Shown here piece after piece: positions 1-32,027 of a DNA stretch of 41,595 bases. The stretch is from a virus. Lineage: Duplodnaviria; Heunggongvirae; Uroviricota; Caudoviricetes. Below the pieces are notes generated by a model that saw only the letters and a list, made by a program, of their open reading frames with translations, searched no databases and was not told the DNA's origin. The stretch lies in IMG/VR virus record IMGVR_UViG_2541047952_000001; one strand, written 5' to 3'. The translations under genes and the position numbers were made by a program. The stretch's first letter is position 1. Every line of letters begins with the position of its first letter.

Positions 1-358
1 CTGCCGGGATCCCCTGACGCACCAGCATCTGCATCATGTTCTGGAAATCAGCCGTTGTACCGGGTAGCTGGTTACCCAGGCCAATAGCCAGTTTATTGAT
101 GTCCTGAAAGCTCTTTCCAACCTCGCCGTTCGCATCCATCATGGCGACTTTCAGCCCGGTGGCGGCGTTTTCCTGATCGGCATAAGATTTCAGGGAAAGC
201 GTCAGACCCGCTGCCAGTCCGCCACCAAGCGCCAGCCCACCCTGTGACGCTTCTTCCGCCTGGCGTTTAAATCCCCGGATTTTCTTTTGCATTTTCGACA
301 GCGCGGGAGAAAGCCTGTCGACACCGGTGATCAACGCCTTAAGCTCAAATTCAGCCAT
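1..358 (-). CDS. tail tape measure protein, N-terminal part (gene continues past the left window edge)
   Basis: Reverse-strand ATG at 358..356 overlaps the stop of the chaperone frameshift product (ATGGCTGA). Hand translation MAEFELKALITGVDRLSPALSKMQKKIRGF...GTTADFQNMMQMLVRQGIPA resembles tape-measure N-termini, and the gene sits directly after the tube and chaperone genes. Confidence 0.65.
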   Translation of the reverse strand, partial: MAEFELKALITGVDRLSPALSKMQKKIRGFKRQAEEASQGGLALGGGLAAGLTLSLKSYADQENAATGLKVAMMDANGEVGKSFQDINKLAIGLGNQLPGTTADFQNMMQMLVRQGIPA

Positions 359-769
359 GTGTGCGTTTCTCCTGCTCTATCCTGTTTGCCTGACTGACCA
401 GCAAGGGAATTTCACTGATCGGCATATTCAGCAATTCGAAGGGATTAATGCGCCAGTAACTGGCGCAGTCAAAGAAGCGATCAGTGAGGTATTCAGCCGT
501 CAGGCCTGGAGGAAAAAACCGGCCACAAGCCACGCCGCTGCATTCAGGTCTGCCGGAGACATCTGGTCGACAGAGCTTTGCGGCACTTTCGCCAGCCGCA
601 CGATGTATTTCGATACCACATGCGCCAGAAGTCTGACGGACTCATCCTGATTCATCTGGTAGGGATATCCCAGCTCGCGGACATCTTTCCCGGTGGGCTC
701 ATCAAACTCCAGTACGGAGAGTGTCTCGCCATGAGCGGTAATCGGTTTCTTTAACTCAAGCTCTTTCAT
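351..769 (-). CDS. tail assembly chaperone, long form by programmed -1 frameshift (G/GT-like)
   Basis: Reverse-strand heptamer T-TTT-TTC at plus 512..518 lies 3 codons before the zero-frame stop. A -1 slip joins the 500..769 frame to the 351..533 frame (continuing ...GFF then PPGLTAEYLTDRFF...), and the fusion stop overlaps the tape-measure ATG. Confidence 0.5.
500..769 (-). CDS. tail assembly chaperone, short form
   Basis: 89-aa ORF between the tube and tape-measure genes; ends ...AAWLVAGFFLQA with a slippery heptamer just before its stop. Confidence 0.6.
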   Translation of the reverse strand: MKELELKKPITAHGETLSVLEFDEPTGKDVRELGYPYQMNQDESVRLLAHVVSKYIVRLAKVPQSSVDQMSPADLNAAAWLVAGFFLQA

Positions 770-1125
770 TACTGGTAATCCCCTTCTTCACCGTGGAACT
801 CAAGATCGACCGTGCCTTCTTCGGCATTATGGTTCGCTTCGCCGTGCAGCCAGGCAGACGACAGTACATAGACCTGACCGTTTGCCAGCTCGGCAGTGAT
901 GGTCATCTCATCAGACGAGGTGATTTTGCTCACCGGAAAATTCTTCGGCACCTTGAAGGTCCCTTTGACATAAGGCGCACGGTGAGTTTCCTTGCGGTCC
1001 ACTGAACCGTCCAGGCCGATGATGTCATCATTGACCGTCCTGTTCATGGGCACCTCAATGCCGCCGGTCAGCGATAGCTGCTGACCGTCAATTTTGAAAT
1101 AACAGGTTCCCCCGATACGGGCCAT
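769..1125 (-). CDS. contractile tail tube protein (Mu gpM-like)
   Basis: 118-aa ORF directly downstream of the sheath gene with the start/stop overlap typical of a coupled sheath-tube pair; size matches Mu-type tube proteins. Confidence 0.65.
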   Translation of the reverse strand: MARIGGTCYFKIDGQQLSLTGGIEVPMNRTVNDDIIGLDGSVDRKETHRAPYVKGTFKVPKNFPVSKITSSDEMTITAELANGQVYVLSSAWLHGEANHNAEEGTVDLEFHGEEGDYQ

Positions 1126-2618
1126 TATGCAGACTCCTCTGAATACTGAAGACGGAACTGGTTAACCACGGCAAAGACACGCAACTGGTTAACATAGTCA
1201 GGCGGGAACAGCGTGTTCAGGCGGTTCGGATCGCTGGCATCACGCTCCACAACCAGGTACTGCTTAAACAGTTCGTAGTTTTCCACGATCCCCGCACGCT
1301 CAAGCTGACGGTAGGTTGCCAGCAGTTCCCCTTTGATCACCGCCGGGGTGACAATCGCCTGACCGGGACCAAAGCGGGTACCGTCACTGGCAAGCTTGTG
1401 ACGCCCGTACTTACTGGTAATGACGGATTTCAGTTTGCGCAGTACATACGCGCTGGTATGCAGTGTCTCACTGTCGAGGTAGCTGTTATCCGCAACCCCG
1501 TAAGCGTTTTTCCTGTACGTGGTGACATCACGCTGAATGCGCAGTACCCCGCTTTCGACATACGCCGTTGCCACGCCATGAGACAGCAGGGTCTGTTGTT
1601 CGGTCATCGTGAACCGTTTCCCCTTCGGCGCAGGCAGCATACCCACCAGCTCACCGGTCTGCGTGGGACGTGCCGGATCGTTGCGAATAAACACCGCTGC
1701 GCGGGCGGTACGGCTTGCCGCCAGCTCGTCGGCAGGCGTCTGGGTCTCTTTTTCGTATCCCGCCAGGGTAATGTGCTGCTGGTTAAACTGGTCACCTGCG
1801 GTCACCAGTTCTGACAGCGTGCCGATCTTTGCCGTATACACATGACCATACAGCTGACGCGCATAGCTCCAGCGACCGCTGGTATCGTTCATCTCGGTCA
1901 CCAGCGTGTTAACGGAGGCTGTGTCGTTGAACGGCAGGCCGATATAATCAAACGGCTCATCCGCCATTGCAGCCACCGCGCCGGTGAGAACAGGAGCGCC
2001 CGTTCCGGCGGTACCCGTCGCCACGGCAATCTGTACGCCCGCTGGCAGCACTTCGCCCCCACCAAAGCCGTAGTAATTGAGGCTGACAGGAATTTCATTC
2101 CCGCAAAGCCCCTTATGACGCGCGTTCAGTGTGACCACGCCTGCCGAAGATGAGGCAGTAAACGGCAGGGTCGGAACGGCATTGATGGCATCCTGGATAC
2201 TGCTGGCAATCGTCGCGACGTTATCGCCGTTGGTCACCGGTGCCTGCACGCGGGTACGTCCCACATAAACATTCACCGTGCCGGTTTCGGTTGCCGCGCC
2301 GGTCACCGTCAGCGTAACTGTTGCCGCCGCGCCCGTGGATTCAGGAACGGCAATCACATACAGTTCACCAAACGGGTCGGTCTGGCGATAAGCCTCGACC
2401 ATACGCGCCAGCTGACTTCCCGCACCACAAATCTGGCGTGCATAGTCTGCCGATGGCATCAGCACCAGACTGTTGGCAACAATCTCTGCACCGTTATTGG
2501 CATGACCAATCAGCAGCGATGCTCCGCTGTCCTGTGCAGTATTCGCCGCCTGGTTATCCATTTCCGCATAAAAAATCGGAACCAGCGTATTCGACGGAAT
2601 GGTGTTAAAGCTCGTCAT
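1125..2618 (-). CDS. contractile tail sheath protein (Mu gpL-like)
   Basis: 497-aa ORF (MTSFNTIPSNTLVPIFYAEMDNQ...), size and position typical of Mu-like sheath proteins; followed by tube, chaperone and tape measure. Confidence 0.8.
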   Translation of the reverse strand: MTSFNTIPSNTLVPIFYAEMDNQAANTAQDSGASLLIGHANNGAEIVANSLVLMPSADYARQICGAGSQLARMVEAYRQTDPFGELYVIAVPESTGAAATVTLTVTGAATETGTVNVYVGRTRVQAPVTNGDNVATIASSIQDAINAVPTLPFTASSSAGVVTLNARHKGLCGNEIPVSLNYYGFGGGEVLPAGVQIAVATGTAGTGAPVLTGAVAAMADEPFDYIGLPFNDTASVNTLVTEMNDTSGRWSYARQLYGHVYTAKIGTLSELVTAGDQFNQQHITLAGYEKETQTPADELAASRTARAAVFIRNDPARPTQTGELVGMLPAPKGKRFTMTEQQTLLSHGVATAYVESGVLRIQRDVTTYRKNAYGVADNSYLDSETLHTSAYVLRKLKSVITSKYGRHKLASDGTRFGPGQAIVTPAVIKGELLATYRQLERAGIVENYELFKQYLVVERDASDPNRLNTLFPPDYVNQLRVFAVVNQFRLQYSEESA

Positions 2619-26006: not shown

Positions 26007-27046
26007 AGGCTGAAGCATGGCGGGTCAGCAAACTTGGTGAAATACCTGATATAACGTTCGAGGAAGCGTGTGTCAGGTGGCTTGAAGAGAAAGCACATAA
26101 AAAATCACTGGACGATGACAAAAGCCGGATCGGATTCTGGCTTCAACATTTCGCAGGAATGCAACTAAGAGACATTACTGAATCAAAAATTTATTCAGCA
26201 ATGCAGAAAATGACGAACCGGCGTCATGAGGAAAACTGGAAACTCAGGGCAGAAGCATGCAGAAAAAAAGGGAAACCTGTTCCAGAATACACGCCAAAAC
26301 CAGCGTCCGTTGCAACGAAGGCTACGCATCTTTCATTTATAAAGGCCCTACTAAGAGCCGCAGAGCGTGAATGGAAAATGCTGGATAAGGCACCAATTAT
26401 TAAAGTGCCTCAACCAAAGAATAAACGGATCCGCTGGCTGGAGCCCCATGAAGCACAAAGGCTGATTGATGAATGTCCGGAGCCATTAAAGTCTGTTGTT
26501 GAATTTGCACTGGCAACAGGCTTAAGACGCTCGAACATCATCAACCTTGAATGGCAACAAATAGATATGCAGCGCCGGGTGGCATGGATAAACCCGGAAG
26601 AGAGTAAATCAAACCGCGCAATTGGCGTTGCGCTGAATGATACTGCATGTCGCGTATTGAAAAAACAAATCGGGAATCATCACCGTTGGGTATTTGTGTA
26701 CAAGGAAAGCTGTACCAAACCAGACGGAACGAAAGCGCCAACAGTAAGGAAGATGCGGTATGACGCAAACACAGCCTGGAAAGCGGCGCTGAGACGGGCT
26801 GGTATTGATGATTTCAGATTTCACGACTTGAGACACACCTGGGCAAGTTGGCTGGTTCAAGCCGGAGTCCCGTTGTCAGTTTTACAGGAAATGGGAGGCT
26901 GGGAGTCTATCGAAATGGTTCGTCGATATGCTCACCTTGCACCTAATCACCTTACCGAACACGCACGGCAAATAGACTCGATCCTGAACCCATCGGTCCC
27001 AAATTTGTCCCAGTCAAAAAATAAGGAAGGTACTAATGATGTGTAA
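25883..27046 (+). CDS. int: tyrosine integrase (prophage, thrW-targeting)
   Basis: 387-aa [25 protein letters not shown]... with C-terminal catalytic-region motifs ([10 protein letters not shown]...RRYAHL); stops 15 nt before the thrW 3' fragment. Confidence 0.9.
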
Positions 27047-27109: not shown

Positions 27110-27293
27110 ATGTTAATGCATTTTTAACTACTTGAGCAATCAATCAAAACAACATACTTTATATTATAAAACACCAAGTTATAGCAATAAACCCGTTGAT
27201 TGAAATTAACAAAAGTTGATGTTTATTCCCTCCATTTACTTACACCAGCAGTTACATTATTGTAAGACAGCAATTCTCAACTGGAGCCGAAAA

Positions 27294-28619
27294 ATGGCGC
27301 TTTCAAGACAAAAATTTACCTTCGAAAGACTTCGCAGATTCACCTTACCGGAAGGGAAAAAACAAACTTTTCTTTGGGATGCAGATGTAACAACCCTGGC
27401 ATGCCGAGCAACTAGCGGAGCAAAAGCCTTTGTATTCCAAAGCGTATATGCGGGGAAAACCCTTCGCATGACTATTGGCAACATTAACGACTGGAAGATT
27501 GATGATGCGAGAGCCGAGGCAAGACGGTTACAAACATTGATCGATACAGGGATAGATCCACGAATTGCTAAGGCTGTAAAAATCGCAGAAGCAGAATCCC
27601 TGCAGGCAGAATCACGTAAAACAAAAGTGACTTTCTCCGTCGCCTGGGAAGACTATCTTCAAGAATTGAGAACCGGTATCAGTGCAAAAACTAAACGCCC
27701 ATATTCTACTCGATACATTGCCGATCACATTAACTTGTCCAGTCGTGGAGGCGAAAGTAAAAAAAGAGGCCAAGGCCCGACTTCGGCTGGACCATTGGCT
27801 AGTTTGCTCAACCTGCCGTTATCGGAGCTAACCCCAGATTACATAGCAGCGTGGCTGAGTACAGAAAGGCAAAATAGACCTACCGTCACTGCTCACGCTT
27901 ATCGCCTACTACGTGCTTTCATCAAATGGAGTAATTATCAGAAAAAATATCAAGGGATCATTCCTGGCGATCTGGCACAAGATTACAACGTAAGAAAAAT
28001 GGTTCCCGTGTCAGCGAGTAAAGCTGATGATTGCCTGCAAAAGGAACAACTAAAAAGCTGGTTTAGTGCCGTGCGTAGCCTCAATAATCCTATTGCATCG
28101 GCCTATCTCCAAGTACTTTTGCTCACTGGTGCTCGGCGTGAAGAAATTGCGTCGCTTCGCTGGTCAGACGTAGATTTCAAATGGTCAAGCATGCGAATTA
28201 AAGACAAGATCGAAGGTGAACGTATCATCCCTCTCACTCCTTATGTTTCTGAATTGTTAAATGTACTAGCGCAATCCCCAAATTCTGACGTAAATAAGGA
28301 GGGTTGGGTTTTCAGAAGTAACAGTAAAAGTGGCAAAATTATTGAGCCGCGTTCAGCGCACAACAGAGCGTTAGTGCTGGCTGAGTTACCACATATCAGC
28401 CTTCACGGTTTACGTCGTAGTTTTGGTACTTTGGCCGAGTGGGTTGAAGTTCCCACTGGTATTGTTGCTCAAATTATGGGACACAAACCCAGCGCTCTTG
28501 CCGAAAAACACTATCGCCGTCGTCCGTTAGATCTGTTACGAAAATGGCACGAGAAAATTGAGACATGGATCTTAAATGAAGCAGGTATTACCATAAAAAA
28601 CAACGTTGATATGCGTTGA
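27294..28619 (+). CDS. P4-type tyrosine integrase of a second integrative element (CP4-6 IntF-like)
   Basis: Preferred start MALSRQKFTFERLRRF at 27294 with GGAG RBS (track: 27216); C-terminal HGLRRSFGTLAEW...KHYRR catalytic-type motifs. Confidence 0.85.
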   Translation: MALSRQKFTFERLRRFTLPEGKKQTFLWDADVTTLACRATSGAKAFVFQSVYAGKTLRMTIGNINDWKIDDARAEARRLQTLIDTGIDPRIAKAVKIAEAESLQAESRKTKVTFSVAWEDYLQELRTGISAKTKRPYSTRYIADHINLSSRGGESKKRGQGPTSAGPLASLLNLPLSELTPDYIAAWLSTERQNRPTVTAHAYRLLRAFIKWSNYQKKYQGIIPGDLAQDYNVRKMVPVSASKADDCLQKEQLKSWFSAVRSLNNPIASAYLQVLLLTGARREEIASLRWSDVDFKWSSMRIKDKIEGERIIPLTPYVSELLNVLAQSPNSDVNKEGWVFRSNSKSGKIIEPRSAHNRALVLAELPHISLHGLRRSFGTLAEWVEVPTGIVAQIMGHKPSALAEKHYRRRPLDLLRKWHEKIETWILNEAGITIKNNVDMR

Positions 28620-29515: not shown

Positions 29516-30370
29516 ATGTCTAATAGTGTTACTAATTTTGAGATGAGCAGCGTTCTACCAGGAAAAAAACCTTGTCAAGGCAAAAACAATGAGTCACAGG
29601 TAGTACAGACTACTCCCATAAAAAAACACTCAGTCACGTTCAAAAATCAATCTTCATTAGGAGTAATTGATCATTATGCCAGACTAACAAATAAATCTCA
29701 CTCTTCCGTAATAGCGGAAGTTGTGGATTTGGCTATCCCTATATTAGAAAAATGCAATCGTCATAACTGGTCAATAAATGAAATAAAAAATGACCTGTTA
29801 AAGTTCTCTATAAAAGAAAGCATCAATCGAAGCCGAGGTAAAACAGAAGTAACTCTGGAAGAGTACTGTTCGTTAATCTGGAAAACGAACATCATGAGTC
29901 CATTAAAAATCCCCATTGCAGATTACTTTCAACTGAACGCTAATGATGAATTCATGGGGAAAGATGAAAAAACAGTTATACGTGAAAGGCTATCCTCGCT
30001 AAGGGAAAATTACGATATGGAAAAAGCCATTTACATTTACAATCAAAGACATTTTGATGTAAAGCATCAAAGTGTCTCAGGATATTCAAACATTATTCTT
30101 ATTCATAGAACAACCTTTGAGGGTTATTACTTTGATGCCGGGCAGGCTCTACTCTTGTCAACATCCCAATTGATTATATTCGGGATAAATGAAGTTCTTA
30201 GAAGAAAGGGGATTGTTATGCCTTATCCGGTTGTTTGTTGGATTGATATTTACCATGTCAATGAAATGGTGGTTATGCTGCCAGTGCTCCGCAAAACAGA
30301 TGTTTCCAACCGTGTTAATGTACCGGATGACATCATTATAAACCCATACTCACAAGAGAGCAGAACCTAA
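29516..30370 (+). CDS. hypothetical protein (284 aa, YagM-like)
   Basis: AT-rich ORF; no recognisable catalytic motif; size equals my recollection of CP4-6 YagM. Confidence 0.5.
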   Translation: MSNSVTNFEMSSVLPGKKPCQGKNNESQVVQTTPIKKHSVTFKNQSSLGVIDHYARLTNKSHSSVIAEVVDLAIPILEKCNRHNWSINEIKNDLLKFSIKESINRSRGKTEVTLEEYCSLIWKTNIMSPLKIPIADYFQLNANDEFMGKDEKTVIRERLSSLRENYDMEKAIYIYNQRHFDVKHQSVSGYSNIILIHRTTFEGYYFDAGQALLLSTSQLIIFGINEVLRRKGIVMPYPVVCWIDIYHVNEMVVMLPVLRKTDVSNRVNVPDDIIINPYSQESRT

Positions 30371-31751: not shown

Positions 31752-32027
31752 GTGGCTTCTGTTTCTATCAGCTGTCCCTCCTGTTCAGCTACTGACGGGG
31801 TGGTGCGTAACGGCAAAAGCACCGCCGGACATCAGCGCTATCTCTGCTCTCACTGCCGTAAAACATGGCAACTGCAGTTCACTTACACCGCTTCTCAACC
31901 CGGTACGCACCAGAAAATCATTGATATGGCCATGAATGGCGTTGGATGCCGGGCAACAGCCCGCATTATGGGCGTTGGCCTCAACACGATTTTCCGCCAT
32001 TTAAAAAACTCAGGCCGCAGTCGGTAA
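31752..32027 (+). CDS. insA: IS1 InsA
   Basis: 91-aa product [43 protein letters not shown]... Confidence 0.9.

Follow-up and report, generated by a model that had tools for sequence, protein, structure and literature searches.

A conserved T_TTT_TTC heptamer and a predicted P2-like -1 frameshift in the tail assembly chaperone gene of an SfV-type Escherichia coli prophage

Described systems and layout of the locus

Both products of a tail assembly chaperone pair of the G/GT paradigm are made at a fixed ratio, are needed for tail assembly and are absent from virions. The frameshifted pair is said to have been presented as the G/GT paradigm by Xu et al. in 2004. In phage lambda, gpG and gpGT are encoded between the major tail and tape-measure genes, as is the pair described below, and likewise comprise a short abundant product and a rare C-terminally extended one (PMC5009743). 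A -1 translational frameshift yields gpE and gpE+E' in phage P2 (PMC3091744), which is the closest known system to the present locus, and a -2 frameshift has been described for gp41 of phage Mu (PMC2628397, PMC5009743).

The window (the whole stretch of DNA that was analysed, 41,595 nt of IMG/VR record IMGVR_UViG_2541047952_000001) comes from an SfV-type E. coli prophage. As in the G/GT paradigm, two overlapping frames lie between the tail tube and tape-measure genes (tube 1125..769, chaperone 769..500, extension to 351); the features are listed in table 1. By direct reading of the minus strand and by scripted translation, the 89-aa chaperone ends in AAWLVAGFFLQA followed by its stop. The last codons are GGT TTT TTC CTC CAG GCC TGA, with the zero-frame TGA at 502..500, and X of the heptamer is the third base of the GGT codon, which sets the X_XXY_YYZ phase (phase 2) and leaves three sense codons (CTC CAG GCC) before the stop. 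When C512 is re-read in the -1 frame, translation runs on through PPGLTAEYLTDRFFDCASYWRINPFELLNMPISEIPLLVSQANRIEQEKRTHG (53 aa) to the TGA at 353..351, so that the fusion, encoded on the minus strand as join(769..512, 512..351), is 86 + 53 = 139 aa long. The fusion, with its stop, overlaps the tape-measure ATG (358..356) within the string ATGGCTGA. Scripted translation thereby reproduced the geometry claimed in the earlier note, namely an in-phase T-TTT-TTC (located at 518..512) three codons before the chaperone stop, a fusion of about 140 aa reached by a -1 slip into the 351..533 frame, and a fusion stop overlapping the tape-measure ATG. The 89-aa zero-frame product is presumably the short, abundant form and the equivalent of P2 gpE or lambda gpG, and the -1 extension is the equivalent of P2 E' or lambda T.

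Table 1. Features of the tail region of the window and the basis of each entry.
Feature	Coordinates	Strand	Details
Mu-like tail sheath gene	1125..2618	minus	PF04984 and PF17482
Tail tube gene, directly upstream of the chaperone gene	769..1125	minus	PF10618 Tail_tube, E 2.4e-33; phrog_185
Zero-frame tail assembly chaperone ORF, 89 aa	500..769	minus	ORF list and scripted translation
Slippery heptamer T_TTT_TTC	512..518	minus	X_XXY_YYZ phase, codons GGT TTT TTC
-1-frame extension	351..512	minus	53 codons 512..354 and stop TGA 353..351
9-bp inverted repeat CACUGAUCG / CGAUCAGUG	478..486 and 413..421	minus	perfect pairing, inside the extension coding sequence
8-bp hairpin UGCGCCAG-UUA-CUGGCGCA	449..467	minus	86% paired across 20 relatives
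Tape-measure gene, 5' part	1..358	minus	ATG 358..356, leaves the window; phrog_28 and other tape-measure PHROGs

The chaperone matched PF10109 (Phage_TAC_7, titled 'Phage tail assembly chaperone proteins, E, or 41 or 14') with 60.3 bits and E = 1.9e-16 (cut-off 25), and among the PHROGs it matched phrog_166 ('tail protein') with E = 7e-24. In RefSeq it is labelled 'phage tail assembly protein' and the tape-measure gene 'phage tail tape measure protein'. The PF10109 match and the place between the tube and tape-measure genes bear out the earlier identification of the ORF as a tail assembly chaperone. The extension matched phrog_32181 (E = 4e-40), a family without known function that is made of separately called small ORFs; its domain has no Pfam or NCBIfam model, and searched alone against PF06528 of Pfam it lay below reach and gave no direct match. 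None of the NCBIfam models matched the chaperone, the fusion or P2 E+E', and a PDB sequence search with the chaperone gave no solved relative at E up to 1. The sheath is 36% identical to Mu gpL over 499 aligned positions (E = 6e-89). The locus had previously been read as a G/GT-type arrangement in a Mu-like module; the arrangement and the Mu-like sheath stand, and the chaperone and recoding site were reassigned to the P2 E/E+E' type.

Conservation of the heptamer and of the -1 frame

Relatives were collected as 23 genomic loci, 20 of them distinct, with approximately 40-100% protein identity, from Enterobacteriaceae, Erwiniaceae, Edwardsiella and the beta-proteobacterium Derxia. Phages AH07, ST64B and BgVeeders33 were added to the 20 genomic relatives to give 23 distinct relatives at the DNA level; IMG/VR scans returned only sequences identical or near-identical to the queries. 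Loss of the heptamer in relatives had been named beforehand as an observation that would speak against the site. When checked, an in-phase T_TTT_TTN was kept in 23 of 23, mostly as GGT TTT TTC and with a T7 instead of a T6 run in L019, L024 and ST64B. In all 23 the zero frame stops 3-23 codons past the heptamer and the -1 frame provides an extension of 50-59 aa. The end of this extension, as seen in the printed sequence contexts, overlaps the presumed tape-measure start codon or lies within about 10 nt of it, often in the string ATGGCTGA; the presumed start was matched to annotation for the window, AH07 and ST64B only.

The extension is conserved as a protein, with the consensus ..YFDCAxYWRINPxELLxxPxSxxxLLxxQANRI.. 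and the motif FDxAxYWRxxP...QAxRI. Among the 12 relatives that aligned without gaps, the mean pairwise difference over the 150 nt upstream was 0.16, 0.11 and 0.51 at codon positions 1, 2 and 3, and downstream of the zero-frame stop it was 0.24, 0.15 and 0.45 at positions 1, 2 and 3 of the -1 frame. The substitution periodicity changes from frame 0 to frame -1 at the heptamer, and the -1 frame is under purifying selection from the heptamer onward. The nine bases GG-TTTTTT-C are invariant in the same 12 relatives, three wobble positions included, compared with the upstream third-position mean of 0.51. Across the relatives Z of the heptamer is C or T (G in P2) and X is always T; that Z varies but X never does fits the prediction of tandem slippage.

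Between the upstream stop and the conserved part, the -1 frame holds no ATG, GTG or TTG in 12 of the 20 relatives, and where a start codon is present it is a by-product of a conserved Trp codon. No Shine-Dalgarno sequence for the extension was found in any of the 20. The downstream frame is coding yet lacks independent initiation, and the conserved -1 protein, the periodicity and the missing start of its own together identify the extension as a coding region that is reachable only by a frame change at the T run.

A total of 176 homologues of the chaperone were found in databases, nearly all of those listed being 84-100 aa long, and no natural in-frame fusion of chaperone and extension was apparent among them. 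Six longer homologues (107-139 aa; P0001, P0002, P0005, P0006, P0007 and P0116, from metagenome or Logan assemblies) were considered as natural fusions and rejected, since their residues are locally scrambled around the T run in a manner resembling homopolymer or indel errors of assembly. P0119 and P0120 (Candidatus Williamhamiltonella defendens; Logan contig), of 95 and 122 aa, carry one Phe more at the slip site and end in ...AGFFFPG, which may reflect lengthening of the T run or decay of the site in an endosymbiont prophage.

Alternative explanations and the mechanism of the frame change

The heptamer could merely encode Gly-Phe-Phe, with the open -1 frame as a fortuitous non-coding spacer. 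T6 runs are indeed common (43 start positions on the minus strand of the 41.6 kb), and 3 of 55 other gene-like ORFs of the window have an in-phase heptamer within their last 25 codons and then at least 40 open -1 codons, the open frame in these three controls probably being due to a downstream gene in that frame, judging by ORF coordinates. The sequence pattern alone is weak evidence, and conservation decides: in both gamma- and beta-proteobacterial relatives the -1 frame is conserved as protein and shows codon periodicity, and with the wobble bases of the heptamer invariant as well, a coincidence is left with next to no probability. A separate gene of 60 aa with a GTG start at 351..533 is a slightly better candidate, though still very improbable; it is present in the ORF list as GTG-initiated, ON470584 lists its product as a hypothetical protein in its own right, and similar small ORFs deposited as hypothetical proteins make up phrog_32181. 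This GTG, however, lies at -15 without a Shine-Dalgarno sequence and is a by-product of the conserved frame-0 Trp codon, the 12 relatives mentioned above have no start codon before the conserved part, and conservation of the -1 frame starts at the heptamer and not upstream of it.

The frame change itself could occur in transcription, RNA polymerase adding one U in U6 and normal translation then giving the same GFF-PPG fusion. The product of such slippage, as reasoned from the sequence, is identical to the -1 ribosomal product, and since both mechanisms give ...GFFPPG..., peptide mass spectrometry cannot separate them. The site is a homopolymer of T6, or T7 in the three relatives named above, no ribosomal stimulator was found near the heptamer, and UUUUUUU is under-represented in all three frames of E. 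coli genes, possibly via transcriptional slippage (PMC4066793). Efficient slippage by bacterial RNA polymerase, however, has been described for runs of about 9 A/T (PMC5009743), a length that the T6 here and the T6-T7 runs among relatives do not reach. The codon before the run has T at its wobble position without exception, and the run always stands in X_XXY_YYZ phase, an argument confounded by the shared GFF protein homology. PMC3091744, referring to Christie 2002 and Xu 2004, describes the homologous P2 site as translational. Low-level slippage of RNA polymerase may occur on short runs; because of the short run and the P2 precedent, transcriptional slippage is less likely than ribosomal frameshifting and is given a low probability.

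The three control ORFs are 25572..26006, 29516..30370 and 31752..32027 (all on the plus strand), with the heptamers TTTAAAC, AAACCCA, and AAAAAAC and TTTAAAA, respectively. Their -1 frame is apparently the next gene, e.g. the integrase gene 25883..27046, and the heptamers are likely coincidental.

A minority -1 ribosomal slip at U_UUU_UUC very probably gives the 139-aa fusion beside the 89-aa chaperone, and we infer a ribosomal rather than a transcriptional shift. Most ribosomes would stop at the TGA at 502..500 and release the 89-aa chaperone, and a minority would slip back one base with two tRNA-Phe on UUU (P site) and UUC (A site). The tRNAs would re-pair on UUU UUU and decoding would resume with CCU CCA GGC... 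in the -1 frame, yielding the 139-aa fusion that ends at the tape-measure start. U_UU.U_UU.Y belongs to the efficient class of E. coli -1 motifs, and U_UU.U_UU.C is among the motifs employed by IS elements (PMC4066793). In an E. coli reporter, frameshifting at UUUUUUC was 0.12% for the heptamer alone and rose to 0.89% and 7.6% when the IS911 stimulators and the IS3 pseudoknot, respectively, were present (PMC4066793, supplement).

Stimulatory elements were sought on both sides of the heptamer. Across 20 relatives the RNAalifold consensus reached -3.9 kcal/mol and placed no helix beside the site; neither a hairpin nor a pseudoknot was found to be conserved downstream. No structure stood out on folding of the 35 and 50 nt downstream in 22 family members and P2 (mean z -0.23 and +0.15 versus same-gene windows), and in the window's own clade the downstream region folds worse than control windows. 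No upstream Shine-Dalgarno-like element is conserved in the alignment, GGAGG being present in L017 only. For the 119 nt after the heptamer in the window, a fold z-score of -3.6 was obtained, due mainly to a 9-bp long-range helix (486..478/421..413) and in addition to the 8-bp hairpin at 467..449. The helix begins 25 nt downstream of the heptamer; 8-9 of its 9 pairs are kept in the closest clade and also in L016, there via several both-side (compensatory) changes, and it is lost (2-3 of 9 pairs) in L014, L015, L017, L018, L022 and L023. As a classical stimulator it was rejected, being too distant and absent from most other relatives. The hairpin was likewise rejected as too distant, lying approximately 45 nt beyond the heptamer; as it codes for CASYWR, a conserved motif of the extension, selection on the protein alone may account for its conservation.

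Relatives as far apart as Enterobacteriaceae, Burkholderia and Derxia keep the site unchanged, along with its invariant flanks (GG on the 5' side, C-U on the 3' side), and the nascent peptide before the slip, ...DLNxAxWxVAGFF, is strongly conserved. Shifting at a bare heptamer is about 0.1% in E. coli reporters and no canonical stimulator is conserved, yet the site has not changed, so that use of an unrecognised frameshift stimulator by the SfV-type family is conceivable, if rather unlikely. Were it to exist, the nascent peptide, the flanking context or the clade-specific helix 486..478/421..413 could set the ratio of the two products.

By analogy with lambda G/GT and P2 E/E+E' (for lambda, PMC5009743), the shared N-terminal domain would coat or bind the tape-measure protein, and the extension, present on a small fixed fraction, would recruit tube protein, upon which tube and sheath would polymerise with the tape measure at their core. 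The assembly role of the extension is drawn from this analogy; neither chaperone product would be expected in the finished virion, and the 139-aa fusion is likely to be essential. An AlphaFold model of the fusion, calculated from a 30-row alignment, was of low confidence (mean pLDDT 59.8, pTM 0.44) and suggests a beta-hairpin/alpha N-terminal part that is joined to a helical extension by an ill-defined linker, residues 86-90, located at the slip site.

Distribution, annotation and comparison with known systems

The region is 98-99% identical to the Shigella/E. coli phages SfV, SfI and SfII, which are Shigella serotype-converting phages carrying the tail region, and 100% identical to prophages in many E. 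coli chromosomes. The tail region (window 1..1200) was matched in 1104 of 5426 complete E. coli genomes, in up to 4 places per genome; 14 places were on plasmids. Homologous chaperone-extension regions are also found in SfIV, ST64B and phiP27. At the presumed prophage end, tandem tyrosine recombinase (PF00589) genes were found at 25883..27046 and 27216..28619 (both on the plus strand), and a search of the whole window with ARAGORN detected no tRNA. In E. coli strain 127, the single integrase of a closely related prophage adjoins tRNA-Thr and proA; compared with that prophage, the two integrases and the lack of a tRNA indicate that the window prophage may be at a different site or may adjoin a second integrated element.

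In the records inspected, the 89-aa protein is followed by a blank of approximately 140 nt or by a lone 60-aa 'hypothetical protein', and a joined fusion CDS is absent from all of them (NZ_CP023377.1, U82619, ON470584, MZ501270, OK665841 and AY055382). RefSeq leaves 351..499 blank, with locus tags skipping from RS20075 to RS20085, and the separately called protein in ON470584 is the 60-aa form. In the open-access literature no paper was found that ties SfV or ST64B to a chaperone frameshift, and a literature search for experiments on frameshifting in the SfV-type phage family found none; Xu et al. 2004 or Christie et al. 2002 may already list the family in their tables. The SfV-family site is an unannotated member of a known recoding class and is conceptually not new; its value is mainly for annotation, the 139-aa fusion being missing from the inspected public records.

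The P2 system resembles that of the window in several respects. Its N-terminal domain likewise belongs to PF10109 (47.8 bits for P2 gpE versus 60.3 for the window protein, both over profile positions 2-78), and its site is likewise GGT TTT TTN, encoding Gly-Phe-(Phe/Leu) in the same phase and close to the 3' end (GTC GGT TTT TTG, locus position 679, phase 2). The products are 91/142 aa in P2 and 89/139 aa in the window, and the P2 fusion stop likewise overlaps the tape-measure start, E+E' ending at 858 and T starting at 851, that is 8 nt inside gene T. Both phages have contractile tails, and P2 likewise has no convincing downstream structure (folding in this work; PMC3091744 for P2 and P2-like phages). 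The differences are that Z is G in P2 and C in the window, and that the surrounding sheath in the window is Mu-like and not P2-like.

At the protein level, the fusion gave no significant match to P2 E+E' or Mu gp41 in pairwise BLAST. An extension profile was built from 50 remote relatives collected by exhaustive HMMER search, 1 of which matched PF06528 (Phage_P2_GpE) at 1.2e-4. Aligned with hhalign, this profile was colinear with P2 E' at a probability of 68% (E 4.9e-5); against a GpE alignment of 24 sequences the probability was 63% (E 7e-5), again in colinear fashion and with the FF of the slip site aligned. These profile comparisons suggest that the window extension is probably a remote homologue of P2 E'. 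The N-terminal domain and the site context are common to the window and P2, and the recoding device is, as judged from sequence, P2-like.

Lambda gpG/gpGT differ in their heptamer (G_GGA_AAG), in protein family and in a non-contractile tail, and the ratio of approximately 30:1 and the function were shown by experiment for lambda, whereas for the window phage they are drawn from comparison. E. coli dnaX and IS3/IS911 likewise have tandem-slippage heptamers read by E. coli ribosomes; they differ in that they depend on an SD-like element upstream, on a hairpin or pseudoknot downstream, or on both, and no such element is conserved in the window family.

Mu has a tail module of the same type as the window, with the same order of sheath, tube, chaperone and tape-measure genes. 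Mu gp41 differs in length (144 aa) and in family, matching PF23746 (Gp41_Mu) with 119 bits and PF10109 below threshold only. Its extension aligns weakly but colinearly with that of the window (hhalign P about 1e-3) and is in the +1/-2 frame after CGG GGG CGA, as opposed to -1 at the T run; the extension ORF ends approximately 24 nt upstream of the gp42 start and, unlike that of the window, does not overlap it. Assignment of the window chaperone to the Mu gp41 type was rejected, since the window protein matches PF10109 only and its extension is in the -1 frame. Mu-like tail modules would thus use at least two recoding solutions, a -1 shift at a T run as in the window and a -2 shift at a G run as in Mu.
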